A stretch of 64,000 nucleotides of DNA, from contig JBHGNT010000015.1 in the NCBI GenBank assembly GCA_043228905.1, positions 4,712,001 through 4,776,000 on the forward strand. The letters are read 5' to 3'. Positions 1,237 through 60,920 of the stretch are shown here, piece by piece. Origin of the DNA: Azolla caroliniana (lineage: Eukaryota; Plantae; Polypodiophyta). Below the pieces are notes generated by a model. The model was given only the letters and a program-made list of their open reading frames with translations, was not told the DNA's origin and ran no database searches. Positions within the stretch are counted from its first letter, which is position 1. Every line of letters begins with the position of its first letter. The position numbers and the translations under genes are program-made.

Positions 1237-1286
1237 TGTCGAGACTTGAGAATAGGAGAGAGAAAGATAAGATGACGATAGAAGGT

Positions 1287-1331
<45 letters not shown>

Positions 1332-1689
1332 ACTAGAAATGGAAAGAGAGTTTATATTATAAGAGAGCAAGGATTACAAAGAGTAGGCTAAGGGGCTACA
1401 AACTGGTGTTGAATAGAATGAGTTGTGATGAATGAATAGACACCTATTTATAGGTCCTTATGGCGTATTCTAGAATGTTCTAGAATATTTTAGATATTTA
1501 TGATATTTAATATAATCATGGAATATCCTAGAATGTTCTAGAATACCCAAAATATCTTGTAATAACTAATAATACATTTATTATAACTATACATCATATA
1601 TGTTATTATAATGGTTAAAGGTCTAACATATAGACCAAGAAATCTTGGGCTCGAATCCTTGTAAGGCCAAAATGTATGTCTTCATGACA
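1237..1689 (-). repeat. Gy1 3' LTR
   Basis: Direct repeat of 6510-6943; adjacent polypurine tract (minus strand AAAAAGGGGGGATAA). Confidence 0.95.
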
Positions 1690-4600
1690 TTATCCCCCCT
1701 TTTTGACAACGACTTCCATGAGTTGGAAGACAAGATTTCGGACTTGGCTTATGGGGATATTTGTTGTGAAACGCAACATCCATTTCGGAGGCATTAGCAA
1801 AATTCTCGAGAGGTTCCCATGTTCGATCATTAGGTGTATATCCTAACCAGTCAACCAAATAATACAGTTTGTTGCGAACGATCTTGGAGTCAAGAATGGC
1901 AGCAACGTCATATTCGGAGCCATCCGAAACTTCTATTGGAGGTGGGGGAGATGTAAGACGACCTGGAATAGAGCTGGTTGTGTACGGCTGCAAAAGTGAA
2001 ACATGGAAGACCGGGTGAAGATGCATATGAGGGGGAAGATCAAGGCGAAAGGCCACATCATTGATCTTACCAGATATCACATATGGGCCAAAACATTGAT
2101 AATCCAATTTGCAACAAGGTTGGGTTGTTTTAATGCGACCTTGTAAAAGCCATACTTGATCTCCCACTTGAAACATAGTCGATGAATCACGTCGATGACG
2201 GTCGGAAACCTTCTTTTGAGTGTTTTGAGCATCACATAAATGGTGCAAAAGGATATCTTGAACTTCTTGGAGTCGGGTGAGCCGATCTTCAGCAACCGGG
2301 TTTGTCGGGAGTTCGAGATGTTCAACCATAGTCCAACGAGGATGGTACCCAATGTTTGCAAAAAATGTAGAATATCCAGTAGAAGAATGTTCTAAGTTGT
2401 TGTAAGCAAATTCCGCCAAATGTAATAGATCAACCCAATCATCTTGTTGATAGTTGACAAAACAATAAAGATATTGTTCTACTATTTGGTTGGTGCGCTC
2501 ACTCTGTTCGTTAGTTTCTGGATGGTAGCCGGAAGAGAGTTTGCAAGAAGTATGTAAGAGTTTGAACATGTGCCGCCAAAATTTTGAGATGAACTGGGGA
2601 CACCGATCACTAATAATATCATCAGGAAGACCATGATGCCGAAACACCTCTCGCATGAGTAACTCGGCTGTCTCTTGGCTTGTAATGGCCTTTGTGCAGG
2701 GAAGAAAATGTGCCATCTTGGTAAAACAATCTACTACCATGAGAATAGAATCAAAACCCTTGGAAGGTGGTAGATTCGTAATGAAGTCCAATGAAATAGA
2801 TTTCCATGGACTCTCAGGAATAGGCATTGGCTGTAATAAGCCATATGGATGATGTCGAGGTTTTTTGGATCGGCAACATGTATCACAACTACGAACATAA
2901 TCCGTAACAAAATGGCGAAGTCGTGCCGACCAATACCTTCGATAAATTAATGCCAAAGTCTTGTGGATGCCGAAATGTCCAACCATTGGTGTGTCATGAC
3001 ATTGTTGCAAGACTTGGAGTCGAGAAGGACCATCAGGCACATATAAGAGATTTTGTCGAAAAAAGTAAACCATCATGCCAATTGAACTGGTTGTCGTCTT
3101 GACGAGGATTTTGAGATTGTGAACAAGAAGCACGATCTGGGATAATATGGTTCAGAATGTCTTGGGTGAATTCATTAGTCTCAATATGCTCCCGAATGGA
3201 GTTCAGAAGACTTGAATCCTCGGGTGTGTCTATAGCATGAAATGCCATTAGTCGTAGACGGTTAGGACCCAAGAGGATTTGCTTCTGACTTTCCAATACG
3301 GCCTCTCCTGGTTGAAGTTCCATATATGAACGTTGAGATAAAGCATCTGCTTTTCCTTGTTGTGTCCCAGGGCGATATAGAATTACGAAATCAAAATGAG
3401 TTAAGAACTTCACCCAACGAGCTTGTCGACGACTCAAGACTCGAGCACTTTGGAAGTACGTTAGATTTTTGTGATCATTATAGACAATGATTTGTTGAGA
3501 TGAACCCTCCACAAAATGATGCCAATGTTGAAAAGAATCCACAATGGAAAGAGGCTCTTTGTTGTGAATCTCATAGTTGATTTCTGTAGCTTTGAATTTT
3601 CGTGAATGAAAAGCCACAAGGTGTAGTTGGTCATCATTGCTAATTTGGGATAATACGATCCTAGTGCGAAGTCAGATGCATCAGCTTCGAGTATAAATCA
3701 CCTCAATGGATCAACATGCATCAAAATTGGTGCGGATGTAAATTCTTTCTTTAATCATTCAAATGCAGAGTTTGCATTTATACTCCACACAAATGGTCGA
3801 TTCTTTTATGTCAGTTGAGTGAGGGGTAATACGATCTTTGAATAAGCTTTGATGAACTTGCGATAAAATTTTGCGAACCCCAAAAAACATTCTACATCTC
3901 GCACAGACTGTGGTGTTTGCCAATCCAAAACTATTTGAACCTTTGCTCGATCCATAGAGATGCCATGTGAAGAGACTATGTACCCCAAAAACTCCACTTG
4001 ATGCTGGTCGAAACTGCACTTCTCCAAATTTGCATAAGACCATATTCACACAACCATTGCAAAGCTTGTTGAACGTGTATATCATGATCCTCTTGAGTTT
4101 TTGAGTAGATCAAGATATCATCTAGGTAAACTATGACGAAAATATCGAGCAAATCTCGAAAAATGTCATTCGCCATATGTTTGAAAACTACTAGTGCATT
4201 CGTGAGACCAAATGGCATCACTGTATACTCAAAATGGCCATAGCGAGTACGGAAAGCAATCTTCCATTCATCCCCAGGACGAATTCGAACAAGATTGTAA
4301 GCACCTCGAAGATCTAACTTTGTGAAATACTTAGCTCCACTGAGGCGTTCCAGAAGGCTCGAAATCAATGGTAGAGAATATCAGTTTCAAATAGTTACTT
4401 TATTCAATCCTCGATAATCCACGACCAGACGAAGCGAACCATCTTTCTTCTTAATGAAAAATATGGGTGCGCCGGTAGGAGATCTTGAATGCTGGATAAA
4501 CCCATTCGCCAAGTTCTCATCGATATATTCCCGAAGAACCTCTAGCTCCGAGGGAAAAAGGTTATAAATTGGCCCCCATGGAGGCTCTTTTCCGGGCTGC

Positions 4601-5325
4601 AAATCAATTGGGCAATCATATGGTCGATGCTCTGGTAGTCTATTGGCCTTCACCTTATCAAACACATCGGAGAATTCTATATATTTCTTTGGTAGTTGGA
4701 TCCCCGATTCTTGTGAGCTCCATGTGGGAGTTGCTAAAACTGCGAACACCAACATGTCTTCCTTCCATCCTTCCTCACGTAACTGACGTATAGAGATTGT
4801 CGAAATCTTTTCGAATGTCATATCCTTTGTTGGAGTTTTAAGAGACTCAGATTGTATTGTGACCTCTTCAATGGTTCTTTTTCTCCAATCAATAGTTGGG
4901 TTATGTAGCTCAAACCATGGAAGACCAAGAACTAGGGAGTGATCTGGACTACTAATGATGTTAATTGAGATGACACTAGCCAAATTGCCTAGGACTACAC
5001 GAATTGGTTTAGACTCTTCAACTATATCACTTGATGCTATGGGGCGTCCATCAATGACTCCGATATACACTGGGCTTGGGAGCTTATGCAACTGAATATT
5101 ATGCATTACATCAAACTTATGATCCATGAAACAAGAGTTGTCTCCAGAGTCTAAGAGGGTAGAAGCTGGGACTCGATGGCACCTAGATGTGTTAAGCTCA
5201 ACTTGTGCAGAGAAAACTCAACTAACTTGACCAGGTGAAATGGAACCACAACTAGGGACAGACGTTACATGCCTAGGGTTGTCCAACCAAATGGTTTCGA
5301 TTTTGGCCGAACTTACTCGTTTAAC
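1682..5325 (-). pseudogene. Gy1 pol (PR, RT, RNase H, integrase, chromodomain), disrupted
   Basis: LLDSG protease, YLDD RT, RNase H FHSRK...NYEI, integrase with GPY motif, C-terminal chromodomain EYDVAAILDSK...YYLVDWLGY...TWEP. Split over five ORFs by stops and frameshifts. Confidence 0.93.
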
Positions 5326-6269
5326 ACATCATCTAATTGGCTCAAGACATCAAATGTATTTTTATGACAGGAACTATTAGGCCTACTTGGTTTATGAGAA
5401 GGCGGGGCAGAAATCGAGATGGGATTGTCATGAGCATTTACTTGGTTAACTTGTCGTCGTGGTTTATGTGGACAATTCACAACAATATGCCTTGGACCAC
5501 CACAATAGACGCATATACGATTCGCTCGCCATTGTTGCTTTTCAGCATCCGATAATGGTCCTCGACATCGTGTTGTCTCGATTTCCATTGGAGTAGGGCC
5601 TTCCAACACACTTGACTTTGATACTTGGGGTGAAGTTGCGACCACCGAAGCATATGTTTCTATTGGTCGGAAGCGTAACATTTGTTGGCGCTCAGAACGC
5701 CGCTCAAATAAGCGATCGTCACATCGCACAACCCGACTTACTACTTCAGTAAGATATTTTGGATCATCATGGAAGGTAAGAAGTAAATCCTTCACATCAT
5801 TGCGCAGACCTTGATGAAATTGGTCCATTAACGTTGCCTTGTCCCATGGAATATCACATGCTAGAAGGCGAAAATCTGTAGCATAAGCGGAAGCAGGAGG
5901 ATCTCCTTGTTGTAATCGCCGAATTTTGTTTATTATGGTCCCCATACTATCGGTGTCTTCAAAGTTGGCTTGGAACTCATTAATAAACCCTTCAAAATCT
6001 TCTAATAATGGTGAGTGCTTCTCTAGGAGTGGTGCAAACCATGCTAATGCGGTACCCGTTAACAAGGTACCAGCTAGTCCCACATGAGCAACATCAGTTG
6101 GGTAATGGCTAGGATGAAATTTAATCACAAGCCGTACCTGATTTAAAAATCCACGAAATTGAGACCTTGTACCGTCAAACTTGGACGACAGACTAATCTT
6201 GGGTTCCTTCAGTGAGGTTTGAACTTCCACTGCTTGTCGTTGCAATAGAGTAGTCTCCAATTGATGCAC
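5313..6269 (-). CDS. Gy1 Gag (retrotransposon gag domain + CCHC-type knuckle)
   Basis: ORF with KFDGTRSQFRGFL, PTPMEI and CVYCGGPRHIVVNC motifs; the true start is probably further upstream. Confidence 0.85.
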   Translation of the reverse strand: MHQLETTLLQRQAVEVQTSLKEPKISLSSKFDGTRSQFRGFLNQVRLVIKFHPSHYPTDVAHVGLAGTLLTGTALAWFAPLLEKHSPLLEDFEGFINEFQANFEDTDSMGTIINKIRRLQQGDPPASAYATDFRLLACDIPWDKATLMDQFHQGLRNDVKDLLLTFHDDPKYLTEVVSRVVRCDDRLFERRSERQQMLRFRPIETYASVVATSPQVSKSSVLEGPTPMEIETTRCRGPLSDAEKQQWRANRICVYCGGPRHIVVNCPHKPRRQVNQVNAHDNPISISAPPSHKPSRPNSSCHKNTFDVLSQLDDVLNE

Positions 6270-6496
6270 CCGTTGAGATAATTCTTCATATTATTGTACT
6301 TTCTCAGCACTTACTTGTTGTAGGCCTCCCAACAATCTTTCATTTTCATGCTCCAGTGCCACAAATTTCGTTGTTAGCATGTCGAGCTCGGAGAGAACAT
6401 GCATATATTCTTGCTTGTTGACGGACTCCATAGTTACGAGAGAAAATTGCTAGATTTGCTTGAATAAGGTTAAGATAAGAAGAACAATAGAGAGAT

Positions 6497-6507
6497 ATTT
6501 GGTTCAA
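6497..6507 (-). promoter_or_regulatory. Gy1 non-tRNA (self-priming type) primer-binding site
   Basis: Minus strand TTGAACCAAAT lies 2 nt inside the 5' LTR and is complementary (10/11) to LTR segment 6672-6682. No TGG-starting tRNA PBS. Confidence 0.7.
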
Positions 6508-6509
6508 AC

Positions 6510-6943
6510 TGTCGAGACTTGAGAATAGGAGAGAGAAAGATAAGATGACGATAGAAGGTATACACACACAAACACACACACACACAAAGACAACACTAGA
6601 AATGGAAAGAGAGTTTATATTATAAGAGAGCAAGGATTACAAAGAGTAGGCTAAGGGGCTACAAACTTGTGTTGAACCGAATGAGTTGTGATGAATGAAT
6701 AGACACCTATTTATAGGTCCTTATGGAATATTCTAGAATGTTCTAGAATATTTTAGATATTTAATATAATCATGGAATATCCTAGAATGTTCTAGAATAC
6801 TCTAAATATCTTGTAATAACTAATAATACATTTATTATAACTATATATCATATATGTTATTATAATGGTTAAAGGTCTAACATATAGACCAAGACGTCTT
6901 GGGCTCAAATCCTTGTAAGGCCAAAATGTATGTCTTCATGACA
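6510..6943 (-). repeat. Gy1 5' LTR
   Basis: Direct repeat of 1237-1689; TATA box (minus strand TATAAATA) at 6708-6715. Confidence 0.95.
6726..6748. promoter_or_regulatory. Perfect heat-shock element (5 alternating nGAAn units) in Gy1 LTR
   Basis: GAAtaTTCtaGAAtgTTCtaGAA about 11 bp upstream of the minus-strand TATA; 4-unit copy at 1468-1485. Confidence 0.7.
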
Positions 6944-8976
6944 ATAGAGAGGCAACCGAGTTACAGACAAACTTGATGTCTGAGCGAGGGTAATGAAACT
7001 ACAAGAGAAGTTTCGTGAAGAATAGATTGGGTTCCCTCAAGCATTGCTCGATGAATAAATGCTAGACTACGGAACCTGATTGTCTTGAAGAAAAGCTTTC
7101 TTGAGTGGTCCGACAAAGGGGGTAAAGGACTCTTAGTCTCAAAGTTACTGAGGGAATTTGAGGAGAGATACAATGAGCCCTCAGTAAGGGACCAAGAACT
7201 ATTACAATCAAGAAGGTGGATTTATTTTTCTAAATGGCAGATAAATTTTTCCAGAAACATCTAGCCAGTCTTCTAAAGGATCGGAAAACATGACTGATTT
7301 AGTGTCTGACTAGGTGAAGGTGCTAGAGGCTTATTGAATACTTAGAAGGAGGGCGTTTAGAATAGAGGATGACTATGATGGTAAGAAGAAGAAGACTACT
7401 AGAGAATATCCAAAACAAGAATCAAGAACCTAAGAGATTGCGAGCAAAGAAAAGGCGCATCGATAAGGCTAATAAAGGGAATTACAAGGAATTACAACTC
7501 AAGTTCGCGAAGCTTGAGAAGTGTGAAACCTTGGCTATCAAGCTGAAGCCCGACGAGGGAGAAAAGAGTGAATATGTCCGCCGCAATTGCATATGGTGCG
7601 ATAACACGGAGCACCTAAAAAAGGATTGTCAGAGTCACAAGGATGCATTGGAAAGAAACATTATCTTCAACCAAAATGGGAGAATCCACTCCTTTGAGAC
7701 CTCACAACCCCTAAAGTCCAACTTCGACAAAGGTGGGATGAAGAAGTTTATGGAGGATGTAGGGTTGAAGAATGTATAGGCAATGCACTTTTGGACAACC
7801 TCTAGAATAAAGGTTGGTGATCCCCAAATTGGATTAGGATTGTGGAGAAAGGTAATTGTGAAGTCAATTTTTGCTCATAAGAAAAGACCATGGCAAATAC
7901 ATCGGATGCTAAGGTGTATAAGAATAAAGCACAATATGAAAGGTTCAAGAGTTAAAAGACGAATGAAATTGAAAGGATATGAAGTTAGCGGTGTTTTCCA
8001 AAAGTAGAAAAAGCAGGAAAAAAGATAAAAGAAAAAAACGCATAAAAAAGGCAGAAAAAGCAAGGTAGAGAAAAAAGCTCGTAACTTCTTCATCTCATAT
8101 CCAAATTTCAAAAGAAAAGATTTGTAAGAAATTTGGATGACAAACCAGAAATAATGATATGAAAAACACATCACAAAAACTCGAGGATATGTAGAAAGAA
8201 AAGAAAAGAAAAAAGCAAGAATAACGCAACTAAAAACCTATAAATATGAGGGTATTCTTAGCAATTGGGAGAGACAAAGGGAGGAATAGAATATCTACAA
8301 GAAGAAGCGAGGAAGAATAAGAAGATTAGAAGAAGTGAGAAGAAGATTAGTTGAAGAAAGAGAGAAGAAGGAAAGACTATTTTGGCTAATAGTATATTGA
8401 AGTAGTTATTTGGGGTTGTTACTTTTGGAGTCTAAGAGGATTGTATTGTTTTCGTAATAGTATATTGAAGTATTCTTTTCTCTTCTTCTTCTCTTCTCTA
8501 TCTTTTTTCTTTCTCTCATCATCACTAATCAAGTCAGATAATGAAAAGGGAGTCCAACTGTAGGACTTATTCAAGGCTGGTGATGAGATAAGGAGTAGTA
8601 CTGGGTGGAATGACACATTAGATTCACTAACAACGATCACCAAGATAGCAAGAGTTAACACCCACTAGCAAGGTGTAAGTTGAAGAAAAAAGAAGAAGCA
8701 GGTCCATCAAGAAGACACAATAATTGAGAATAAAAAAGATGAGAAATGAAATGAACTATTACGGAGGCAATGGAGGAAGACCAAGGGAAGTAGAAGTTCT
8801 GCCCATAATTCAAACATCCACTGACCTAAAAAAGGTGTTAGGATCTAGGATTCTCAATGCGAAATTCGAGTTGACACTTCGAGAAGCCCTGAGGATCACA
8901 AAGGAGTTCCACGAAGTGATCATCGACGCAATCCAAAGAAAGAGAGTTTGGTTAAAGAAATGGGTAGTGTAAATAT
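6944..8976 (+). mobile_element. Old degenerate Gypsy-like gag remnant (host of Gy1; left part ~980-1236)
   Basis: CCHC knuckle CIWCDNTEHLKKDC in ORF 7369-7779, K/E-rich fragments, many stops. Sequence is continuous across the Gy1 TSD. Confidence 0.55.
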
Positions 8977-21498: not shown

Positions 21499-24400
21499 TG
21501 TCAGCAGTAGTACTAAAAGAGAGAGAGAATTAGTACTGGAGAAGGGAAGTACTATTAGTACTAAGAGGACTGGACTGCGTAAGACTCACGAGAGAGGAAG
21601 AGAGAGAGATTGCGAGGACGAGAGAGATGATGATAACAGATGATATATTATATGAAGAGTAAGTACAAAATAGCTATGAGGCTTAAGACATGGCGTTGAA
21701 CCAATTTGGTTCGAAATAATGCCTTGTGCCTCCTTTTATAGTGCTCTCAGGAGTAGTCTTGAAGCTTTTGGAAGATACGTTACTTTTCTATAGTAAAATT
21801 GAAATGAAAATAATATCCTACGTATTACAATAGATAGTGTAATGGTCAAGAGCTCAATCCATATAACATAAGGTCATGGGTTCGAGTCTTGCCATATCAT
21901 GACACTATCGCCCCTTAAGACGACGAGTGTAATGAGTCGACGAATCCTAAGCATTGGCGACATGGTCGACGGGTTCCCAAGTACGTTCGCTTGGACTATA
22001 GTCGAGCCAATCGACCAAATAATAAAGTTTGTTGTGAACGAACTTGGAGGCGAGGACAACAACAACTTCATACTCCGGGTCGATGTCCTACTCAAGCGGG
22101 GGTGGCGGTGGGTGTAACACGATTGGGAATAGTTGTTGGCGTTATAAGGTTCAAGAAGAGAACTATGGAAGTTCGGATGTATCTGAAGGTGCGGAGGAAG
22201 ATCAAGGTGGAACGTGACATGATTAATCTTACCGGTAATACGGAAAGGACCGAGTCGTCGATAGTCCAATTTGTCGCATGGTCGAGTAGTCTTGATGTGA
22301 CGACATAAGAGCCACACTCGATCTCCGATGGCAAAAGAGGAGGGAAGCCGATGACGATCCACATAAGTCTTCTGTGTGTGTTGAGCATGACGAAGATGAG
22401 TAGATAGATCCATTTGAATCTTGCATAACTTCTCCAAATGATCCTCGGCACGAGGATTGGTAGGTAGCTCCGGGGTGTCGATCACAGACCAAGGAGGATG
22501 AAAACTGGTATAAGCGTAAAATGGGGAGACTTGAGTTGAGGAGTGAATAACGTTATTATAAGAAAACTCCGCAAAGTGGAGAATATCAACCCAATCATCC
22601 TGTTGGTAACTCAGAAAACACCAGAGGTATTGTTCCAGCATTTGATTTGTTCGTTCTGCTTGCCCATCGGTCTAGGGATGGTGGCTGGAGGAGAGGTTGC
22701 AAGAGACCTTGAGCATCTTAAAGAGGTGCTTCCAAACTTTGGAGACAAATTGAGGTTCTCGATCACTGATGATACTGTCTGGGAGGCCATGATGCCGAAA
22801 TACCTCACGCATGACAAGGGCGGCGGTTTCTTCACTTTTGATGGCCTTAGTACAAGGCACAAAATGTGCCATCTTAGTATATCGATCAACGACGGTTAAA
22901 ATAGCATCAAAACCCTTCGAGACTAGAAGATCTATGATAAAATCAAGAAAAATGGACTGCCACGGCTTACTTGGAATTGCTAAGGATTCCAACAAGCCAT
23001 ATGGATGATGTTGTGGCATCTTTGCTCGGCAACAAGCATCACAGGTCCGAACGTAGTCGTCGACAAAACGTCGCATATGGGGCCACCAAAAAGATCGTTG
23101 AACTAGATCCAACGTCTTAGCACTACCGAAATGTCTCGTTGTATGGGTGTCGTGACAATTTTGGATGATTTGAAGGCGATAGGAGCAATCGGGAACATAT
23201 ACGAGCTTTTTAAAGAATAACAAACCATCATGATATTCGAATTGTCGGTTGTCCATACCTGGTTGTTGAGACTGGGAGTAGGATGCCTGAGAGGTATCAA
23301 TTTGTGCTAGAATGGCTTGAACAAAATTGTCGTCTTCAAGTTGGCACGTATGGCATCGATGATCCGAGAATCTAGTGGAGTGTGAAAAATCCTTGTTGTG
23401 TGCAAACGTGTTGGTCCCAAGTTTACCTGCTTTTGATTATCAAATGTTGGATCACTAGGACGAGGTGCAAGATATGAACATCGCGATAGTGCATCTGCTT
23501 TTCCTTGCTGCTTCCCCGGCCGATATGTGATTTTGAAGTCAAAATGCATGAGAAATTGGGCCCATTGAGCTTGCTGTCGATTTAATACACGAGCATTCTA
23601 GAAATAAGCAAGATTTTTATGATCACTGAAGATGATGACCTGATGTGGAGAGCCCTCTAAGAAGTGCCGCCATTGCACAAATAAATCCACGATGGCTAAT
23701 AACTCCTTGTCATGTATCTTGTAGTTGATTTCCGCAACATCAAATTTGCGCGAATGGAAAGCCACAAGATGTAATTTTTCTTTATCTCCTTGTTGTGAAA
23801 GGATGCTAACGAGGGTGAAATCCGATGCGTCGGCCTCCATAATGAATGGTTTGCTAGTATCCACATGAGCTAGAATCGGTGCTGATGTAAAGGCTTTCGT
23901 AAGATGCATAAAAGCCATGTCTGCTTCATTGGACCAAGGAAATGCTTGTCCCTTCTTGGTAAGCTGTGTGAGAGGCAAAATAATCTTCGAGTAATCTTGT
24001 ATAAACTTGCAGTAGAAGTTAGCAAAGCCTAGGAAACATTGTACATCTCGTAACAAACATGGAGTTTGCCACTCTAACACAATTTTGACTTTAGCTGGAT
24101 CCATGGAGATGCCCTTTGAGGAGATGACGTAGCCTAGAAATTCCACTTGCTTGCAGTCAAAGCTACATTTATCCAGTTTGGCATAAAGACCATTCTCTCC
24201 AAGTCATTTTAGTACTAATAGTACATGAGAATCATACTCTTCCTGGGTCTTCGAATAAACCAATAGATCATCCAGATAGATGATCAAATAGATATCCAAG
24301 AGGTCTCTGAATAGATCATTTGCCATGTGCTGGAAGACTGCGGTGCGGGTGCATTGGTTAGACCAAACGGCATAACGATATACTCGAAGTGCCCATATCG

Positions 24401-27048
24401 GGCGTGAAAAGTGATCTTCCATTTGTCTCTCGGTCGGATCTGCATGAGGTTATATGCTCCTCGTAGGTCGATTTTTGTAAAAAACTTGGCACCATTTACT
24501 CGCTCTAAAAGGCTTGATATAAGGGGAAGTGCATACCTATTCCTGATGGTGACCTTATTCAAGTCGTGGTAATGAACGACGAGACGAAGTGATCCATCTT
24601 TCTTCTTCACAAAGAAAATGGGTGCACCGGCCGAAGATTTCGAGTGACGAATAAACCCGCTTGCCAAATTCTCTTCTATGTAGGCTCGAAGGACTTCTAA
24701 CTCAATTGGTGACAAGTTGTAAATTGGTCCCCATGGTTGCTCTGTTCTTGGTTGTAAATCGATGGGACAATCATAGGGACGATGATGAGGAAGAGTACCG
24801 GCTTTTACCTTGTTAAATACATCGGCATAAGGATGATATTTCACCGGAAGTTGAACTAAGGATTCCTTCTAGTATTGCTGTAAGGATGTACTGATATTGA
24901 AAATAGAAACATTGCCTCCTTGCATCCTTCTTCGCGTAATTGATGGAGTGAAATGGTCGAAACTCGATGAGTAGATTCTCGGGGTTTTCGATACCAGACT
25001 TCTCTTGTTCTCCAATCTATGTCTAGATTATGTAATTCAAACCAAGGTAATCCCAGGACAATGGGATGCTCTGGACTACTAATTATCTTAAATGATACCA
25101 CACACACAAAACTACCTAGGACAACTTGAATGGGTTCTAACTCTTCTATAATATTCCCGGAAGCAATGGGACGACCATCAATGACTACTACAGATGCGGG
25201 GCAAGGAAGTTTTCTTAAGGATATCTGAGAAGCTTGGGCAAAATTCCGATCCATGAAACAGGAATTGGCTCCGGAATCTAAAAGTGCTAAGATGTGTACT
25301 GGAGGGGTACTTTTAGTACTAACCATGACTTGGGCTAAGAACACATTGCTAACTTGCTTAGAGGGAATGGAACCCCTAATGGGCTGCACAGATCTAGGGT
25401 TGTCCAACCAAACGGCTCCTATTTTGGCTGGACTTAGTCGTTTAACTCTTCTTTTAATTGACTAAGGATTTCAAATTTGTTTCAGATTCCTGGGCTATCA
25501 GTACTATTAATACTATCAGACACTCCTAAGGGAATTGACTCGGGTTTAGTACAGGCTACGATTTGTTTTACCTGTCTTCTTGGCCTATGGGGACAGTTGA
25601 TTGCTATATGCCCTGGTCCACCGCAATAAATATATAATTGATTTGCACATCGTCGTTGCTTTTCTTCTTCCGATAACGGGCCACGTCGACCCATGGTGTC
25701 GATCTCCATCGGTGTTGGAGTATTTGCCTGAGATACATCTCGTGCAAACGATGTAGCTGCGATTGAGGCGTCTGTGGGCTCTGGCCTACGACGTGGTATT
25801 TGTAATGGATGTTCCGAACGTCGTTCGAAAAGGCGGTTGTTGCATCAGACTACTCGACTGATTGCCTCTGTAAGAGACTTTGGTTCTTCAGGGAAGGTTA
25901 AAAGTAAATATTTGACATCGTTTTGCAGGTTGTAGCGAAACTGCTCCATTAGTGCCTGATCATCCCAGGGAATATCTGAGGCGAGTAGACGGAAATTTTC
26001 CGTGTAGGCAGAGGTTGGACGATCGCCTTGACGCAAACGTCGGATTTTGTTGATCGCCGTCCTGATGCTGTCGGTATCTCCGAAGCAAGCTTTAAACTCG
26101 CTAATAAAGTCTTCAAAGTTATTAAACAAGGGCGATTGTTTTTCTAGAAGCGGAGCGAACCATGCCAAGGTTGAGCCACTAAGCAACGTGCATATTAGGC
26201 CTACTCGGGATGCATCAATGGGGTATTGGGAAGGATGCATTTGAATGACTAAGCGTACCTGATTAAGGAATACCCTGAATTGTGATTGCAAGAAGTCCAA
26301 TCTTGGGCTCTTTATGAAATCCTTGGGGACTTGATCCTTGTTGTTGCAACGCCACGATGGTTGCTTCGAGTTGTTGTACACGTAACGCTAACTCCCCATG
26401 TTGTGGTTGCGTTTACTGTTTTTCTAGATCGATTTGTTGAAGATCCCCTAACAATCGTTGGTTTTCTTGTTCCAATGCAACAAATTTTTCTTTTCGACAC
26501 TGTAGCTCGAAAAAAATGGATTGATATTCTTGGGCGCTAACAGTAGCCATAATATTGGAAGAAAAAAAGGGGTAAGAGGATGAGGGAAATCGAAAACAAG
26601 ACTAGAGGAAGAAAATTGGTTCAAATTGTCAGGAATAGAACAAAAACAGAGAGAGAATTAGTACTGGAGAAGGGAAGTACTATTAGTACTAAGAGGACGG
26701 GACTGTGTAAGACTCACGAGAGAGGAAGAGAGAGAGATAGCGAGGACGAGAGAGAGAGAGAGTGATGATGATAACTGATGATATATTGTATGAAGAGTAA
26801 GTACAAAATAGCTATGAGGTTTAAGACTAGCGTTGAACCAATTTGGTTCGAAATAATGCCTTCTGCCTCCTTTTATAGTGCTCTCAGGAGTAGTCCTAAA
26901 GCTTCTAGAATGTTCTAGAGAAATCTGGAATATACATTAATTTTCTATGGTAAAACTTAAATGAAAATAATATCCTATTTATTACAATAGATAGTGTAAT
27001 GGTCAAGAGCTCGACCCATATAACATAAGGTCATGGGTTATCATGACA
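21499..27048 (-). mobile_element. Gy2: full-length, decayed Ty3/Gypsy chromovirus (second family)
   Basis: LTRs 21499-21904 and 26627-27048, TSD CAGTG/GAGTG, gag ~25434-26500, LLDSGA, YLDD, integrase, frameshifted chromodomain (KLYYLVDW...TWEP). Confidence 0.93.
26613..26624 (-). promoter_or_regulatory. Gy2 self-priming type PBS
   Basis: Minus strand TTGAACCAATTT lies 2 nt inside the 5' LTR and is a perfect 12-nt complement of LTR segment 26833-26844. Confidence 0.75.
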
Positions 27049-34514: not shown

Positions 34515-37500
34515 TGTCGAATACATGTGTATAATGGACGTATTCACACTATCCCGTTTTGGCCATTTATGTAATTAGCATAAAGGGTAGTTGCCCTAAG
34601 TCGGTCACTATATATATTGACCTTGTAACCTTTTTGTAAGGTTGGGTTGTTGTATTCTTGTCTATTGGAATAAAGAGTTCTTTTGTGCATCTCTCTCTCT
34701 CTCTCTCACTCTCTCTCTGTGCAACGACATAGAAACAGTCATACGCAGGTATGCAGCAAGACTCGAATGCTCCTTGATCTTCCGCACTGACGACTTTGTC
34801 TCCAACATCTGGTATCAGAGCCTGCACAGTAGTCGGTCCTTCAATCCGCTGTCGGCCGTCGTCTCAGCATTCGGTTTCCTGCGTCATTCGAAAAAGAGAG
34901 AAGAAGAACAAAAAAAAAAACGAGGTTTTGCACCTCATCGCGTTAGAGCCTCTTGCTTGGAGTAAGCCATCAGGTTGTACTCTGTTCCTTGTGATCGTAA
35001 CCGCTCGAGGTGAAATCCCCTTGTGTATCATTGACACGATCGTGCTCCATTCGGTTAAACGGCATCCGAAGTAGTCAACAAACGCTGCTCGCCGCTCGTT
35101 GTAACCACTCGGTGCAGATCGGTCTCAAGACAACAACCCCAATTCGTGCTTCATCCGGCTGATCGACATTCGAGAGGATCAGTTGGATCTGTCTCTCTCG
35201 TCGCTGCAGCCACCCGAAGCAGAATCGGTCCAGATAATCGGTTTCAATAATCGGTATTCGGCATATATATCCGAAGCGAACCGGGCTCACTCCGACTCGG
35301 CAACATTCGGGAAGACCAGTCGGTTCTGTCCCTCAAGTTACCGGAGTCAATTCGAGCAAGTTCAACAATACATATATCCGAAGCCGAACCGACTCGGGTT
35401 CAAATCCGACTAGAACGATATCGGGTGAGCCAACCGGCTGCACTCCAACAAGGCTCGTAGTCAACTCCGAACCGAGCTTCGTCAACCGAAACCCAATTTG
35501 ATGGCATCAACATCCGGCTCGTCAGAAATGAGTCTACGAAAGTTCGATGGATCGAACTTCAACTTCTGGAAGGAGCAAATGCAGGACTATCTCATAGTCA
35601 AGGGGCAAATCGATCCCATCGAAAATGAAGAACCTCCAGAAGGATACAAACCAACTGAGTGGCAGAAGCTGGACAGAATCGTCCGCGCCACGATTCGGAT
35701 GCACCTATCGGAATCGGTATACTTTACGGTGCAATCGTGTACGACAGCATTCGAACTGTGGAAAACACTGTTGGACACTTATGAAAAGAAGGTCGCCGCA
35801 ACGAAGATGTTTCTGATCCGGCGCCTCTACAACTTGCGGATGAAAGAATCCGATTCGGTTCAAGCACACCTCAATGAGTACGAAAGCATAAGCTCCCAAA
35901 TCTCGTCACAGGGGACGGCAATCGAGGATGAACTCAGAGCAATGATACTCATGAGCAGCCTCCCCTCATCATGGGAAACTTTCGTCACAACCGTGTGCAA
36001 CGCGTCAACCACGGCTGTTAAATACTCCGAAGTCACGAGCGCAATCCTGACCGAAGCAGCTCGGAGAAAGTCTTTCGCCAAAGACTCAACAGAAGACGCT
36101 TATGTAGTACAAGGTTCGACAGACCGATCGAACATACGAGGAAGAGATTCCTCACGACCGCCGAACAATCAGCGAAGACGGAGCCAGTCACGGGATAACC
36201 GAATCTGCAACTATTGCAAGAAACCCGGACACATCAAAGCCGACTGCCGCGCACTCAAGAACAAGAACAACAAGAAGAGTGGCCGGCATGAGGAGATCAA
36301 TTACGTCAGCTTCTCAGCTGATGTACTACCGGACGACCCGAATATACTATCAATCGAAAATCCAGTCGGATCAGAAGTTCTACTCACGACTGAAGAATCG
36401 AGCACATGGCTCTTAGATTCGGGCGCGTCATTTCACGTGACTCCTCATCGATCCCAATTTCGGCAATATACGATCCATCACTCCGACTCAGTTCGAGTCG
36501 GCAACTCACAACACTGTGACATCATCGGAATCGGCACAGTAGAGCTCAACCTTGCAGGTGGCTCTACACTTGTACTCCACAATGTCCGACATGTACCCGA
36601 GCTCTCAAGGCCATTGATCTCAGTCGGACAACTAGATGAAGACGGCATTCGTGCCGGTTTTTCTTCGGGAGGGTGGACACTCCACAGGGGGAACCTCCTG
36701 CTTGCTAGAGGACCCAAGATACACTCACTGTATCCGTTACATGTTACGCTCAGAGAGGGTAACCTGTTTTTGGTGGATATTCCTGTGTCATCACTATGGC
36801 ACAGAAGATTAGGACACCTCAGCAAGGCCGGCATTACGCATCTATCTAGAGCCGGATACATCCCCAAACTCTCCTTCTCCGACCATCAATTCTGCGAGCA
36901 TTGCCAGTATGGCAAACAAGTAGCCGCATCACACCCGACATCAGCACCAAGAGAAACGAGACCTCTTGATTTAGTCCACTCGGACGTCTGTGGCCCAATG
37001 CCACATCAGTCTCTCGGCGGTGCCTCCTACTTCGTCACTTTTATTGACGATTCGACTCGAAAGGTGTGGGCTTATCCAATTCGCACCAAAGATCAGGTCT
37101 TCTCGATCTTCTCAGATTGGCTCGCTATGGTAGAAAATCAAACCGACCGAACGCTGAAATGCCTTCGGACAGACAATGGGGGAGAGTTCAAATCCGAAGA
37201 ATTCGTCAAATTCTGCCGACAACGCGGAATCCGACGTGAATTTACGGCACCACACAGCCCGGAGCAAAACGGGATTGCCGAACGAATGAATCGGACAATC
37301 CAAGAAAGGATAGTTTCCATGCTCCAACACTCCGGACTGTCGGATGGCTTCTGGGCAGAGGCTCTACTCACGGCAGTACACATAATCAATATGTCGCCAA
37401 GTAGACCTCTAGGACTTCAAATTCCTCAGGAACTATGGATCGGCAGTAAGCCGAATTACGACAAGCTGAGGATCTTCGGATGCGAGGCGTACGCCCTTAT

Positions 37501-39999
37501 TCCGAAAGATGATCGCCGAAAACTTGCACCTCGGTCCAGGAAATGCATTTTCCTTGGATATGGATCCGACGGCGAAATGGGATACCGACTCTGGGACCCC
37601 GAACGCAGACAAATCGTTCGAAGTTCGGACGTTGTGTTCAACGAGTCGGCTATGAATCCATCAGTCGAAAAACCGATCGAAGTCCGAAGGGTAACATTTT
37701 CCGATGTGCCGACCCTTCAAGAAGGCCCCGCTCTCAACACACGGTCAGCTTCACGGGTAGCTGAACCTTACACCACCGACTCGGACAACTCCGACTCGGC
37801 ACAGCAGAACAATCCGCTTTCGGATCATCCGACCTTGATACCCGATGCGACCAGTCCAATCTTACCTCGACGATCCGAGAGACTGTCGCAACCTCCGGAG
37901 AGGTACTCTCCTGGAATTTTCTTCACCGACGCCGGCGAACCGACGTCTTACGAAGAAGCATCGACATCTGTCGATTCAGCCACCTGGCATCTGGCGATGG
38001 AGTCGGAAATGCACTCCATTCGGGCAAACAAGACTTGGGATCTGGTCGAATTACCTAGGAACCGACGTGCTCTTCCTTGCAAGTGGGTTTATCGACTAAA
38101 AGAGACGTCTGATTCGACCACCCCAAAGTACAAGGCCAGATTAGTTGCGAAGGGCTTCCGACAAGAATATGGCGTCGACTTCGACGAGATTTTTTCACCA
38201 GTGGTGAAAATGACAACCCTTCGTTTTCTACTCGGCGTAGTGGCAGCCGACAACTTGGAGCTGATTCAGCTAGATGTCAAAACAGCTTTCCTCCATGGTG
38301 ATCTCGAGGAGGAAATCTATATGGAGCAGCCAAAAGGCTTCGTGGCAACTGGCCAAGAACATCTAGTCTGCCGACTCAGGAAGAGTCTATACGGCCTCAA
38401 ACAGGCACCACGACAATGGTACAAGAAGTTCGACGACTTCATCCAATCGATCGGCTTCTCAAAAAGCGATGAGGACCATTGTCTCTTCACCAACACAGCT
38501 CAAGATGGATCACCCATCTTCCTCATCATTTACGTGGACGACATGCTAATTTCTGGACGCCACGCGGGCGAACTTGCCGATCTCATTCGGCAACTGCGGT
38601 TGAAGTTTGCCATGAAGGACCTCGGTCCGGCACGACACATACTCGGCATGAAGATTAGTCGGCATCACGACAAACGACATCTTTTTTTGTCTCAGACCGA
38701 CTATATCGGACGTGTCTTGGAACGCTTCAACATGCAATCAGCCAAATCTGCTTCAACCCCGCTCCCAATGAATCTTCGGCTCTCTCAGCGAGACTGCCCG
38801 ACATCCGGCCCGGAGGGGGAAGATATGAAGTCGGTACCGTATGCACCGGCAGTCGGCTCCCTGATGTACCTGATGGTCGCGACACGGCCTGATATTTCTC
38901 ACGCCGTAGGAGTCGTTAGCAGATTTATGCACAATCCCGGCCGATCGCATTGGAACGCAGTCAAGCATGTGTTCAGATATCTGGCTGGCACAAAAGACCA
39001 TGGCATTCTTTTCGGTCCGAACCGAACCTCAGGCGTAGTCGGTTACACCGACTCGGACTTCGCCGGCTGTATAGACAGTCGGAAATCAACAACCGGATAC
39101 TGCTTCAAATTCGGCAATGGAGCAATTTCGTGGAAGTCGAAACTTCAGGAGTGCACAGCGACCTCAACGACCGAAGCAGAATATGTAGCTGCGTCCGACG
39201 CAGCAAAAGAAGCTTTGTGGCTCGGTCGGCTGGCGCACACGTTTCGACAAGTCGACCATGACTCGGCTCCAGTTGTCTACAGCGACAGTCAAGGTGCTGT
39301 TGCCTTGTCGAAAAATCCGGTTCACCACAACGCCTCCAAACATATCGACGTTCGATATCACTTCGTTCGGGACTGCGTCATTTCAGGGAAAATCGGTCTA
39401 GAGAAAATATCCACAACCGACAATGTCGCAGATGGAATGACCAAGTGTCTTTCGGCAGACCGTTTTCGGTCTCTTCGGCATCAGATGGGCGTAACGTCAA
39501 ACCAGTCCGGTTAGAGCCGGACACAGAGCAGGATGGTTCCCGACAACCGACATCAATTCCTTAATGATCGGCTTCAACTGTTCCGACCCGACCAGTTCGG
39601 TCTTCTGCCTTCGGACCCTGCCGACTCGAACAAAGCTGATATGTCCGAGAACCTAAATCTATACCTGTAATCTTAGATAACCCATGTATACGCCCATTAC
39701 GGGGGAGTGTCGAATACATGTGTATAATGGACGTATTCACACTATCCCGTTTTGGCCATTTATGTAATTAGCATAAAGGGTAGTTGCCCTAAGTCGGTCA
39801 CTATATATATTGACCTTGTAACCTTTTTGTAAGGTTGGGTTGTTGTATTCTTGTCTATTGGAATAAAGAGTTCTTTTGTGCATCTCTCTCTCTCTCTCTC
39901 ACTCTCTCTCTGTGCAACGACATAGAAACAGTCATACGCAGGTACAGAGAAGAATCGAATGCTTCTTGATCTTCCGCAAAGACGACATTGTCTCCAACA
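34515..39999 (+). mobile_element. Copia E, intact
   Basis: LTRs 34515-34807 and 39708-39999, perfect TSD GAACT, PBS 34810-21, PPT GGGGGAG. Confidence 0.97.
35501..39514 (+). CDS. Copia E gag-pol polyprotein (1337 aa)
   Basis: Uninterrupted ORF: CNYCKKPGHIKADC, LLDSGA, integrase, YVDD, RNase H. Confidence 0.96.
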   Translation: MASTSGSSEMSLRKFDGSNFNFWKEQMQDYLIVKGQIDPIENEEPPEGYKPTEWQKLDRIVRATIRMHLSESVYFTVQSCTTAFELWKTLLDTYEKKVAATKMFLIRRLYNLRMKESDSVQAHLNEYESISSQISSQGTAIEDELRAMILMSSLPSSWETFVTTVCNASTTAVKYSEVTSAILTEAARRKSFAKDSTEDAYVVQGSTDRSNIRGRDSSRPPNNQRRRSQSRDNRICNYCKKPGHIKADCRALKNKNNKKSGRHEEINYVSFSADVLPDDPNILSIENPVGSEVLLTTEESSTWLLDSGASFHVTPHRSQFRQYTIHHSDSVRVGNSQHCDIIGIGTVELNLAGGSTLVLHNVRHVPELSRPLISVGQLDEDGIRAGFSSGGWTLHRGNLLLARGPKIHSLYPLHVTLREGNLFLVDIPVSSLWHRRLGHLSKAGITHLSRAGYIPKLSFSDHQFCEHCQYGKQVAASHPTSAPRETRPLDLVHSDVCGPMPHQSLGGASYFVTFIDDSTRKVWAYPIRTKDQVFSIFSDWLAMVENQTDRTLKCLRTDNGGEFKSEEFVKFCRQRGIRREFTAPHSPEQNGIAERMNRTIQERIVSMLQHSGLSDGFWAEALLTAVHIINMSPSRPLGLQIPQELWIGSKPNYDKLRIFGCEAYALIPKDDRRKLAPRSRKCIFLGYGSDGEMGYRLWDPERRQIVRSSDVVFNESAMNPSVEKPIEVRRVTFSDVPTLQEGPALNTRSASRVAEPYTTDSDNSDSAQQNNPLSDHPTLIPDATSPILPRRSERLSQPPERYSPGIFFTDAGEPTSYEEASTSVDSATWHLAMESEMHSIRANKTWDLVELPRNRRALPCKWVYRLKETSDSTTPKYKARLVAKGFRQEYGVDFDEIFSPVVKMTTLRFLLGVVAADNLELIQLDVKTAFLHGDLEEEIYMEQPKGFVATGQEHLVCRLRKSLYGLKQAPRQWYKKFDDFIQSIGFSKSDEDHCLFTNTAQDGSPIFLIIYVDDMLISGRHAGELADLIRQLRLKFAMKDLGPARHILGMKISRHHDKRHLFLSQTDYIGRVLERFNMQSAKSASTPLPMNLRLSQRDCPTSGPEGEDMKSVPYAPAVGSLMYLMVATRPDISHAVGVVSRFMHNPGRSHWNAVKHVFRYLAGTKDHGILFGPNRTSGVVGYTDSDFAGCIDSRKSTTGYCFKFGNGAISWKSKLQECTATSTTEAEYVAASDAAKEALWLGRLAHTFRQVDHDSAPVVYSDSQGAVALSKNPVHHNASKHIDVRYHFVRDCVISGKIGLEKISTTDNVADGMTKCLSADRFRSLRHQMGVTSNQSG

Positions 40000-41774: not shown

Positions 41775-41896
41775 AAAAGAGTTTCTTATTTCATAGAGCA
41801 ACCATACAACAACCAACCCCACAAAGAGGTTACAAGGTCACTATATATAGTGACTGACTTAGGGCAACTACCCTTTATGCTAATTACATAAATGGC
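40154..41896. other. 100-N assembly gap (40975-41074) flanked by an ~820-bp direct duplication
   Basis: 40154-40974 equals 41075-41896 except for one C in a homopolymer. Confidence 0.9.
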
Positions 41897-44800
41897 CAAA
41901 ACGGGATAGTGTGAATACGTCCATTATACACATGTATTCGACACTCCCCCGTAATGGGCGTATACATGGGTTATCTAAGATTACAGGTATAGACTTAGGT
42001 TCTCGGACATATCAGCTTTGTTCGAGTCGGCAGGGTCCGAAGGCAGAAGACCGAACTGGTCGGGTCGGAACAGTTGAAGCCGATCATTAAGGAACTGATG
42101 TCGGTTGTCGGGAACCATCCTGCTCTGTGTCCGGCTCTAACCGGACTGGTTTGTCGTCACGCCCATCTGATGCCGAAGAGACCGAAAACGGTCTGCCGAG
42201 AGACATTTGGTCATTCCATCTGCGACATTGTCGGTTGTGGATATTTTCTCTAGACCGATTTTCCCTGAAATGACGCAGTCCCGAACGAAGTGATATCGAA
42301 CGTCGATATGTTTGGAGGCGTTGTGGTGAACCGGATTTTTCGACAAGGCAACAGCACCTTGACTGTCGCTGTAGACAACTGGAGCCGAGTCATGTTCGAC
42401 TTGTCGAAACGTGTGCGCCAGCCGACCGAGCCACAAAGCTTCTTTTGCTGCGTCGGACGCAGCTACATATTCTGCTTCGGTCGTTGAGATCGTTGTGCAC
42501 TCCTGAAGTTTCGACTTCCACGAGATTGCTCCATTGCCGAATTTGAAGCAGTATACGGTTGTTGATTTCCGACTGTCTATACAGCCGGCGAAGTCCGAGT
42601 CGGTGTAACCGACTACGCCTGAGGTTCGGTTCGGACCGAAAAGAATGCCGTGATCTTTTGTGCCAGCCAGATATCTGAACACATGCTTGACTGCGTTCCA
42701 ATGCGATCGGCCAGGATTGTGCATAAATCTGCTAACGACTCCTACGGCATGAGAGATGTCAGGCCGTGTCGCGACCATCAGGTACATAAGGGAGCCGACT
42801 GCCGGTGCATACGGTACCGACTTCATATCTTCCCCCTCCGAACCGGATGTCGGGCAGTCTCGCTGAGAGAGCCGAAGATTCATAGGGAGTGGGGTTGAAG
42901 CAGATTTGGCTGATTGCATGTTGAAGCGTTCCAAGACACGTCCGATATAGTCGGTCTGAGACAAAAAAAGATGTCGTGTATTGCGATGCCGACTAATCTT
43001 CATGCCAAGGATGTGTCGTGCCGGACCGAGGTCCTTCATGGCAAACTTCAACCGCAGTTGCCGAACGAGATCGGCAAGTTCGCCCGCGTGGCGTCCAGAA
43101 ATTAGCATGTCGTCCACGTAAATGATGAGGAAGATGGGTGATCCATCTTGAGCTGTGTTGGTGAAGAGACAATGGTCCTCATCGCTTTTGGAGAAGCCGA
43201 TCGATTGGATGAAGTCGTCGAACTTCTTGTACCATTGTCGCGGTGCCTGTTTGAGGCCGTATAGACTCTTCCTGAGTCGGCAGACTAGATGTTCTTGGCC
43301 AGTTGCCACGAAGCCTTTTGGCTGCTCCATATAAATTTCCTCCTCGAGATCACCATGGAGGAAGGCTGTTTTGACATCTAGCTGAATCAGCTCCAAGTTG
43401 TCGGCTGCCACGACGCCGAGCAGAAAACGAAGGGTTGTCATTTTCACCACTGGTGAAAAAATCTCGTCGAAGTCGACGCCATATTCTTGTCGGAAGCCCT
43501 TCGCAACTAATCTGGCCTTGTACTTTGGGGTGGTCGAATCAGACGTCTCTTTTAGTCGATAAACCCACTTGCAAGGAAGAGCACGTCGGTTCCTAGGTAA
43601 TTCGACCAGATCCCAAGTCTTGTTTGCACGGATGGAGTGCATTTCCGACTCCATCGCCAGATTCCAGGTGGCCGAATCGACAGATGTCGATGCTTCTTCG
43701 TAAGACGTCGGTTCGCCGGCGTCGGTGAAGAAAATTCCAGGAGAATACCTCTCCGGAGGTTGCGACAGTCTCTCGGATCGTCGAGGTATGATTGGACTGG
43801 TCGCATCGGGTATCGAGGTCGGATGGTCCGAAACCGAAACATTCGGCTGTGCCGAGTCAGAGTTGTCCGAGTCGGTAGTATAAGGTTCAGCTACCCGTGA
43901 AGCTGACCGTGTGTTGAGAGCGGGGCCTTCTTGAAGGGTCGGCACATCGGAGAATGTTACCCTTCGGACTTCGATTGGTTTTTCGACTGATGGGTTCATA
44001 GCCGACTCGTTGAACACAACGTCCGAACTTCGGACGATTTGTCTGCGTTCGGGGTCCCAGAGTCGGTATCCCATTTCGCCGTCTGATCCATATCCAAGGA
44101 AAATGCATTTCCTGGACCGAGGTGCAAGTTTTCGGCGATCATCTTTCGGAATAAGGGCGTACGCCTCGCATCCGAAGATCCTCAGCTTGTCGTAATTCGG
44201 CTTACTGCCGATCCATAGTTCCTGAGGAATTTGAAGTCCTAGAGGTCTACTTGGCGACATATTGATTATGTGTACTGCCGTGAGTAGAGCCTCTGCCCAG
44301 AAGCCATCCGACAGTCCGGAGTGTTGGAGCATGGAAACTATCCTTTCTTGGATCGTCCGATTCATTCGTTCTGCAATCCCGTTTTGCTCCGGACTGTGTG
44401 GTGCCGTAAATTCACGTCGGATGCCGCGTTGTCGGCAGAATTTGACGAATTCATCGGATTTGAACTCTCCCCCATTGTCTGTCCGAAGGCATTTCAGCTT
44501 TCGGTCGGTTTGATTTTCTACCATAGCGAGCCAATCTGAGAAGATCGAGAAGACACGATCTTTGGTGCGAATCGGATAAGCCCACACCTTTCGAGTCGAA
44601 TCGTCAATAAAACTGACGAAGTAAGAGGCACCGCCTAGAGACTGATGCGGCATTGGGCCACAGACGTCCGAATGGACTAAATCGAGAGGTCTCGTTTCTT
44701 TTGGTGCTGATGTCGGGTGTGATGCGGCTACTTGTTTGCCATACTGGCAATGCTCGCAGAATTGATGGTCGGAGAAGGAGAGTTTGGGGATGTACCCGGC

Positions 44801-59060: not shown

Positions 59061-59159
59061 TTAACCAATCTTAGCCAACACATCATTCAAGCTGGAGACA
59101 GTAGTAGCATAGTACTGCTCAGCCTTGGGCACACTCTTGCTCCTTGCAGCGAAATCCAG
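59061..59159 (-). CDS. psbQ: PsbQ exon 3 (oxygen-evolving enhancer protein 3; spliced CDS 711 nt, 236 aa)
   Basis: CAG acceptor, then LDFAARSKSVPKAEQYYATTVSSLNDVLAKIG-stop, the canonical PsbQ C-terminus. Confidence 0.93.
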   Translation of the reverse strand: MDFAARSKSVPKAEQYYATTVSSLNDVLAKIG

Positions 59160-59665
59160 CTGAACACAAAGAAGAAAACAATGCAAAAGAAAAACCTATC
59201 AGAATTTACCAAATTTTTGTTATAACTTAGATACAACTTTATAATCTTCATTAGCTTAAACCGCTTTGTCTGGCCATTCAAGTTTGCGGGGATTCTAGGC
59301 ATTTATATAAGCTCTAAATTCTACAAACCATAGCAATCTGAATCCTAATCACATGTATATTAAGTAAGTAATTAATGTATGCTAATGCCAATCGACTTCT
59401 CTGTAATGAGCATATAGCCATAATTCTTAGGAATCAATAAGCCAGAAACTGTCCATCTTTTGAAGCAGAAGATCCCCAATTCCAAGTCCTGACACCTTCA
59501 ACCCTGGCTTAGGCTCGAGATCAAAAGAAAAGAACAAAACAAATTTATCTACGGGCTAATCCTGAGAAAATGCAATTTAATTTAATTTAAAGATTAATCC
59601 AAACAAACCTAATCTAATCTAAAGAAATTCTAACAGATCTAATAAAGTGAATCAGAATCCCTTAC

Positions 59666-59961
59666 ATTGTTAATATCATCATAGAGCTTGGCAATAAGAG
59701 CCTTGAGCTCTTTCTTCTCTTCCTTGGCTTTGGATGCAACGATGGTGTTAAGGTCGAAGCGAAGGTAGGAGGCTTTGAGGCGAAGGTCATTTTGCACATA
59801 GGGCCAGGCCTTCTTGTCGATCAAGGTTTTCACGGCTACAATGTCTTTGGCTGACTCCTTGGCTCTTGCAATGGCCTCAGCTGGAGAGAGAGGCTGAAGG
59901 TAAAAACGAGACTTCAATGGAAGATCTAAGTCTCGAGCCTGGTCTGCACTCTCGGTACCGG
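59666..59961 (-). CDS. psbQ: PsbQ exon 2
   Basis: [25 protein letters not shown]...[24 protein letters not shown]; AG/GT boundaries in the correct phase. Confidence 0.95.
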
Positions 59962-60707: not shown

Positions 60708-60920
60708 GTTTCCTCTGGGGGCCTTCGTTGCTCCTGCTCCTTTCCCTTCTCTGTGTCTTTTCTCTCTCTCTCTGTGTGTCTTTCTGTCTCACTGTGAGAG
60801 GATATGGAGGAGAAGGAGGCAGGCTACTTACTAGTGGAAACAGGGGATTGTGTTTGTAATGTTTTTTTGATGAAGTAGAAGTGTGTGTGTGTGTGGAGAA
60901 AGAGAGAAAGAGGGGAATAT

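Follow-up and report, generated by a model that had tools for sequence, protein, structure and literature searches.

The window, meaning the whole stretch of 64,000 nucleotides that was analyzed, harbors two LTR retrotransposons, Gy1 and Gy2, both on the reverse strand. Their main features are listed below.

1237 to 6943, reverse strand: element Gy1, with LTRs at 1237-1689 (3') and 6510-6943 (5') and a fragmented gag-pol
1232-1236 and 6944-6948: the 5-bp TSD of Gy1, flanking both of its ends
1447 to 1452, reverse strand: TATA box of the Gy1 3' LTR, a Pol II promoter divergent from the cassette described below
1690 to 1704, reverse strand: polypurine tract of Gy1, with a T-run in its complement
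1787 to 1912, reverse strand: chromodomain at the integrase end of Gy1
6499 to 6509, reverse strand: primer-binding site (PBS) of Gy1, complementary to the R start at 6671-6681 (duplex -10.2 kcal/mol)
21499 to 27048, reverse strand: element Gy2, with LTRs at 21499-21904 (3') and 26627-27048 (5') and a fragmented gag-pol
21735 to 21740, reverse strand: TATA box of the Gy2 3' LTR
26614 to 26626, reverse strand: PBS of Gy2, complementary to the R start at 26833-26843 (duplex -13.9 kcal/mol)

Both elements span 5.5-5.7 kb with gag-pol in the Ty3/gypsy domain order, and gag, protease, RT/RNase H, integrase and SH3_Tf2-1 domains were found in their reading frames. The LTR pair of Gy1 is 96.9% identical outside a microsatellite and that of Gy2 92.9%, the latter element being flanked by a 5-bp TSD with one mismatch. 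A C-terminal chromodomain was identified in Gy1 (Chromo, E 3e-10), and the Gy2 copy is frameshifted at that point. Judged by eye, the Gy1 domain retains the three residues of the aromatic cage. The primer-binding sites of both elements match no tRNA 3' end and pair with sequence about 35 nt behind the TATA box, and Gy1 and Gy2 are predicted to be self-priming, with a tRNA PBS absent. Self-priming is the pattern given for the Tcn1 clade (PMC6317226). Due to the Ty3/gypsy order, the chromodomain with its aromatic cage and the self-priming PBS, the two elements are probably Tcn1-like chromoviruses, a label taken from features, as the tree presented below holds no named Tcn1 references. The Tcn1 clade shares with them the Ty3/gypsy order, a caged chromodomain, predicted self-priming, LTRs of ~410-460 bp and a 5-bp TSD (PMC2864245, PMC6317226). 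By eye, the R start of SM-Tcn1 is complementary to bases behind its 5' LTR, a self-priming match, whereas PMC2864245 reports none.

A third chromovirus fragment, 81% like Gy2 and without LTRs, lies at 55200-58050 on the reverse strand, and copia elements are densely nested between 10850 and 50900, a nest that also holds an 822-bp tandem duplication. Two copia copies in inverted orientation (35377-39838 and 41813-46274) are 97% alike. A PsbQ gene occupies ~59080-60710 on the reverse strand, and the top three matches of its exon are fern proteins (79-82%). Tcn1 has been reported from mosses, Selaginella and fungi, a PCR survey of ferns having been negative (PMC2864245); the presence of Tcn1-like elements beside a fern-type PsbQ contrasts with that survey.

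The LTRs of both elements carry, close to their outer ends, a cassette that resembles the A and B boxes of a tRNA gene. Its copies are listed below with the numbering of tRNA positions.

1604 to 1658, forward strand: cassette of the Gy1 3' LTR, with the A box at 1604, a hairpin at 1620-1636 and a B box at 1648 that bears the change T54C
6858 to 6912, forward strand: cassette of the Gy1 5' LTR
21835 to 21847, forward strand: A box of the Gy2 3' LTR, tRNA positions 8-20
21871 to 21889, forward strand: variable-loop AGGTC and B box of the Gy2 3' LTR, tRNA positions 44-62
26992 to 27039, forward strand: cassette of the Gy2 5' LTR, with a B box cut by a deletion

A preliminary description of this DNA had placed A-like boxes at 1604, 6858 and 21835 and B-like boxes at 1648, 6902 and 21879. 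All six were recovered, together with a further A-like box at 26992, and the offset of 44 claimed between T8 of the A box and G52 of the B box holds in all three complete copies (both Gy1 LTRs and the Gy2 3' LTR). The cassette is indeed antisense to the element and near the LTR end, its A box starting 86 nt (Gy1) or 70 nt (Gy2) from the terminus, with the end of the Gy2 3' LTR corrected to 21904. The damage noted in the B box of the Gy2 5' LTR was measured as a deletion of 13 nt. The A box is present in all four LTRs of the window and the B box in three of them. From the LTR end inward, the order is terminus, B box, A box, AT-rich stretch, family-specific enhancer-like array, TATA box and self-priming R start. 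The remainder of the LTRs had been called barely alignable between the two families, which is true of mid-U3 and U5 and not of the TATA region, the R start and the termini, which do align.

A relaxed A-to-B pattern occurs in the 64 kb at three cassette loci and at one other site (48045), against an expectation of 0.35 (maximum 2) in 100 Markov controls. The combined boxes score 19.4 bits in Gy1 and 23.5 bits in Gy2, levels that were reached by none of 60 shuffles in either case. Across 1.26 Mb, comprising the window and the additional loci introduced below, seven sites score at least 19 bits, and six of these are cassettes at LTR edges.

In agreement with the preliminary description, which took the cassette not to be a tRNA gene, neither ARAGORN nor Rfam calls one there; at thresholds of 70-80%, the ARAGORN calls are inconsistent and in part lie off the cassette. 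No SINE hallmarks (a tail or a TSD of its own) were seen at the cassette, which occurs in all four window LTRs and in six families. Its origin would be a tRNA gene or a tRNA-SINE captured in U3. The presence of a tRNA-Met copy in the U3 of a salmon retrovirus was not confirmed among the papers listed.

To follow the cassette beyond the window, 4 of 64 parts of a metagenome collection were scanned and the best 80 matches taken. Together with scans of viral and prokaryote collections, this gave at least 89 loci, 86 of which were scored, having DNA behind the integrase. Among the matches listed, the cassette was found at the same place and on the same strand in four more families from the metagenomes: L001, L002, L003/L004 (one family) and L008. 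The antisense orientation at the U3 edge is thereby common to all six cassette families among these matches, Gy1 and Gy2 included. The L008 cassette is weak, and that of L001 was missed by the score and spotted by eye. The viral and prokaryote collections yielded only distant elements, all of them without the cassette. A profile built from Gy1 and Gy2 alone returned L003/L004, L002 and L001 as the only further matches at E ≤ 5 in 630 kb (E 0.15-3.6) and missed L008. In leave-one-out profiles, the omitted family was the best non-training match in six of six cases (E 1e-7 to 0.66).

A quick tree was computed from 39 of 91 rows, many distant and near-duplicate rows being omitted. It unites Gy1, Gy2 and L001-L004 in one fork (SH-aLRT 100), and a fork of 11 elements (SH-aLRT 97) adds L008, L005, L006, L009 and L037. 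Seven of these 11 elements carry the cassette and four are without it, a distribution that requires at least two changes, either a separate gain in L008 or two losses. In L006, L009 and L037, U3 tandem repeats replace the cassette. SM-Tcn1 likewise has U3 tandem repeats and no cassette (PMC2864245, supplement S3, by eye), and, in contrast to the families described here, no tRNA-like LTR segment is mentioned for the Tcn1 clade in the available portions of PMC2864245 and PMC6317226. A second, weaker antisense A/B pair was observed in the protease-RT linker of L004 (1006-1064 and 6329-6389, reverse strand), with the same offset in both diverged units. The linkers of Gy1 and Gy3 do not contain it, and that of Gy2 escaped the pattern; the pair scores 16.9 bits, a level in the chance range that 14 other sites in 1.26 Mb also reach.

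The boxes have outlasted the spacer between them, the flanks, the enhancer type and the silent coding sites. Agreement at four-fold degenerate sites between Gy1 and Gy2 is 0.31, against an expected background of 0.27 (182 sites), and L008 stands at background against the other five families (0.25-0.32); among Gy1, L001, L002 and L004 the values are 0.39-0.52, and these sites are not saturated. Mean pair identity over the six families is 0.79 for B positions 53-61 and 0.87 for positions 44-48, compared with 0.52 for A positions 8-15, 0.40 for positions 49-52, 0.33 for the spacer and 0.33-0.39 for the flanks; these identities are anchored on the boxes and therefore inflated, which makes the profile test the fairer measure. 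The B core is perfect in four of the six families and has one change each in Gy1 (T54C) and L001 (C61T). The distance from TGGT to G53 is held at 36-37 nt across families, whereas that from G53 to the LTR end ranges from 25 to 49 nt, and the A and B boxes stand at a spacing workable for a type 2 Pol III promoter. Its presence in six families, with silent sites saturated between several of them, supports the view that the cassette is a tRNA-type unit retained by the lineage, and not a SINE present in some copies.

The module between cassette and TATA box varies by family and consists of TTCnnGAA arrays in some and of none in others. The array of the Gy1 3' LTR is the following.

1468 to 1543, no strand assigned: TTCnnGAA array of the Gy1 3' LTR, with 5 dimers against 0.18 in shuffles

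Further arrays lie at 6724-6797 (Gy1), at ~26903-26915 (Gy2 5' LTR) and in the U3 of L003, L004 and L008. Gy1, L003/L004 and L008 have 5-8 dimers and the Gy2 5' LTR has 2, against ~0.2 in shuffles. L001 and L002 are without such arrays, L002 having E2F-like motifs. We take the TTCnnGAA units to be the heat-shock-element pattern, and the families that bear them may be heat-inducible.

Variation within families was assessed in contigs. For Gy2, contigs from four runs, drawn from three studies and bearing four organism labels, were aligned to 21745-21915, and all 39 rows were used. In these local alignments of short contigs, which can hide diverged copies and whose depth is not a copy number, positions 44-62 vary only at CpG (at most 11%) and, in one run, at 21871 (6%). 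The mean share of the minor letter is 0.002-0.009 in positions 44-62, against 0.02-0.08 upstream and 0.035-0.05 in the spacer, and windows as low as 44-62 number 0, 0, 0 and 5 of 66 overlapping ones in the respective runs. A count of variable positions gives no separation (3 of 19 in the B region against 20 of 72 in flank and spacer, p 0.38; p 0.06 without CpG). The terminal 15 bases of Gy2 beside the B region are equally invariant. Within the A box, 21842-21846 shows no variant of at least 4% in any of the four runs. In three of the four, no part varies more than the 5' half, which exceeds the flank and changes mostly at free positions, but also by G10A (18-28% of depth, three of four runs) and A14G (up to 24%). 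The 13-nt B-box deletion is not a Gy2-family variant at the 4% threshold. Contig depth, again not a copy number, peaks over the B box at 4-5 times that of the A-box bins. In Gy1, among 40 of 264 matches listed, T54C makes up ~88-94% of depth in three of four runs, where the family is abundant; the canonical T54 accounts, within the same listed matches, for 6-12% of depth in three runs and for 100% in one run of another organism.

Our preferred reading, which retains the TFIIIC-insulator half of the preliminary proposal and is held with slightly less than even confidence, is that the cassette is a selected candidate docking site for TFIIIC and likely a chromatin boundary for the element's own Pol II promoter. 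We infer this from the persistence of the TFIIIC-contact letters, from the placement of the cassette and from the barriers formed in yeast by tDNAs and B boxes. More specifically, host TFIIIC would bind the cassette as DNA and contact chiefly the B box, and TFIIIB might or might not occupy the AT-rich stretch. The B box is better kept than the A box, as in TFIIIC binding, where the affinities for the B and A boxes are nanomolar and micromolar, respectively (PMC12409998). The cassette separates the flank from the enhancer and TATA box and is oriented away from the latter two. The chromodomain would guide insertion of the element into silent chromatin, and docked TFIIIC would then keep silencing in the flank from spreading to the enhancer and TATA box. 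In yeast, tDNAs and sites with only a B box block heterochromatin (PMC12409998), and the barrier at fission yeast cen1 is independent of orientation (PMC2040200). These tDNA and ETC (extra TFIIIC) barriers are similarly centered on B boxes, but they occupy fixed loci of the host and were tested in yeast and mammals (PMC12409998, PMC2040200), whereas the candidate site described here is borne by a mobile element.

Several observations count against a TFIIIC boundary. T54C occurs in most Gy1 contigs of two organisms among the matches listed, the invariance of the Gy2 terminal bases extends beyond the box, and the retention of positions 44-48 is unaccounted for by the core B box. L001 bears C61T, the count of variable positions in Gy2 does not set the B region apart, and the Gy2 A box varies more than the flank in its 5' half. 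The cassette is also dispensable, because four of the 11 clade elements and SM-Tcn1 are without it. Furthermore, the barrier precedents found in the available texts are yeast and mammalian, none being from a plant.

A fairly unlikely alternative is that the cassette acts as a functional Pol III promoter with an antisense product that serves to limit or tune copying; such an RNA would cross the polypurine tract and enter integrase when started in the 3' LTR, or leave the element when started in the 5' LTR. Both boxes and their spacing are kept, and the DNA upstream is AT-rich, which is a need of plant tRNA genes (PMC13578239). In four of six families, the B box of the 3' LTR copy is followed by a run of at least four T no more than 80 nt away. 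However, the T-runs are scattered (+21, +28, +51, +79), with no terminator common between families and none within 400 nt in Gy2 and L004, no RNA structure is shared, and the A box drifts in its 5' half. For Gy2, the absence of a T-run had already been stated in the preliminary description. The Gy1 T-run at 1700-1704 exists in the window copy, but its fifth T (1704) is replaced by C in all four runs, at 90-99% of contig depth. The central hairpin proposed for Gy1 is likewise present at 1620-1636, but it is not common to other families and is shifted 3 nt upstream relative to the anticodon-arm register, and its interpretation as a Met anticodon arm was rejected on both grounds. A consensus fold of the cassette across families contains 0 pairs, an in-register cloverleaf has 47.1% of its cells paired, compared with 45.4% in shuffles, and the folds differ from family to family. 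With no conserved hairpin, cloverleaf or terminator, the suggested discrete antisense RNA of ~105 nt is not supported, and any Pol III RNA from the cassette would be a ragged by-product. An internal inverted repeat of Gy2 (21853-21886) mirrors the B box and forms one long hairpin (-20.9 kcal/mol) that is not found in other families.

It is rather improbable that the cassette is an old tRNA or SINE relic, functionless and slowly decaying as it is carried along in U3. The dominance of T54C in Gy1 of two organisms, C61T in L001, sister families without the cassette and the B box lost in one of four window LTRs would all suit such a relic. Against this, the boxes persist despite saturated silent sites while the spacer between them is at background, and the adjoining enhancer-like module differs between families.

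Still more doubtful is a role in the genomic RNA, in which the sense strand of U3 would anneal the T and D arms of a host tRNA for packaging, dimerization or strand transfer. Orientation and place fit the precedent of Ty3, where the U3 part of a bipartite primer-binding site is complementary to the T and D arms of a tRNA (PMC5371799), and the retention of positions 44-48 agrees with it. Ty3, however, is primed by tRNA and pairs with one tRNA (PMC5371799), whereas Gy1 and Gy2 are predicted to be self-priming, which removes the 5' tRNA anchor, and keep only box-like positions. The low identity of positions 49-52, between kept blocks, would moreover make pairing to any one tRNA discontinuous. It is very improbable that a different DNA-binding protein (a Pol II factor, Gag or integrase) uses the motifs and that their likeness to tRNA boxes reflects origin only: the motifs do lie near the LTR end beside the enhancer region, and the Gy2 terminus is equally invariant, but the distance from B box to LTR end varies while the tRNA-type distance from A to B is fixed.

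The closest known system is Helenus or TRIMp3, which also has a tRNA-derived segment in both LTRs that is conserved around boxes A and B and unlikely to encode a tRNA (PMC10886601); its proposed origin is a SINE insertion into the LTR (PMC10886601, Kojima 2024). Helenus, however, is a short, non-coding, non-autonomous TRIM of 311-1263 bp, in contrast to Gy1 and Gy2 with their 5.5-5.7 kb, gag-pol and TATA box, and its boxes, sense in three LTRs of the supplement, were proposed as a promoter of the genomic RNA (PMC10886601), whereas those described here are antisense and more worn. A bioRxiv preprint contains, in its available part, a single mention of Helenus. Cassandra TRIMs, the analogy drawn in the preliminary description, do carry Pol III promoter boxes in plant LTRs, but these are of the 5S type and sit in non-autonomous elements with demonstrated transcription and conserved terminators (PMC10886601). 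The analogy therefore stands in part, Helenus being nearer and the general idea less new than had been supposed. According to the same source, similarity to part of a tRNA exists in 'not a few' Repbase LTRs, although only TRIMs were analyzed there (PMC10886601), and Repbase may hold autonomous cases that are unanalyzed. The literature searched, which did not extend to most subscription papers or to REXdb additional files 1 and 3, contained no account of an antisense A/B unit in the LTRs of Tcn1 elements or of ferns.

If TFIIIC does bind, the boundary would help to account for the usable promoter of a retrotransposon whose likely insertion sites are in silent chromatin, and would provide a plant case of a tDNA-type barrier, so far found tested only in yeast and mammals. 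A broader proposal, which we put forward more tentatively, is that autonomous chromoviruses targeting silent chromatin might possess a portable TFIIIC barrier that keeps a heat-shock-type or other enhancer usable in heterochromatin and that seeds many TFIIIC sites in fern genomes. Given TFIIIC binding, every LTR of these abundant families, solo LTRs included, would count as a candidate TFIIIC site, which would affect genome folding, the landing of other Pol III-targeting elements and fern tRNA gene counts. No insertions upstream of the cassette were seen in the four window LTRs or in five cassette-bearing loci, a small sample. More than 7500 tRNA genes are given for the fern Azolla (PMC13578239), and LTR-borne cassettes could inflate counts of this kind.
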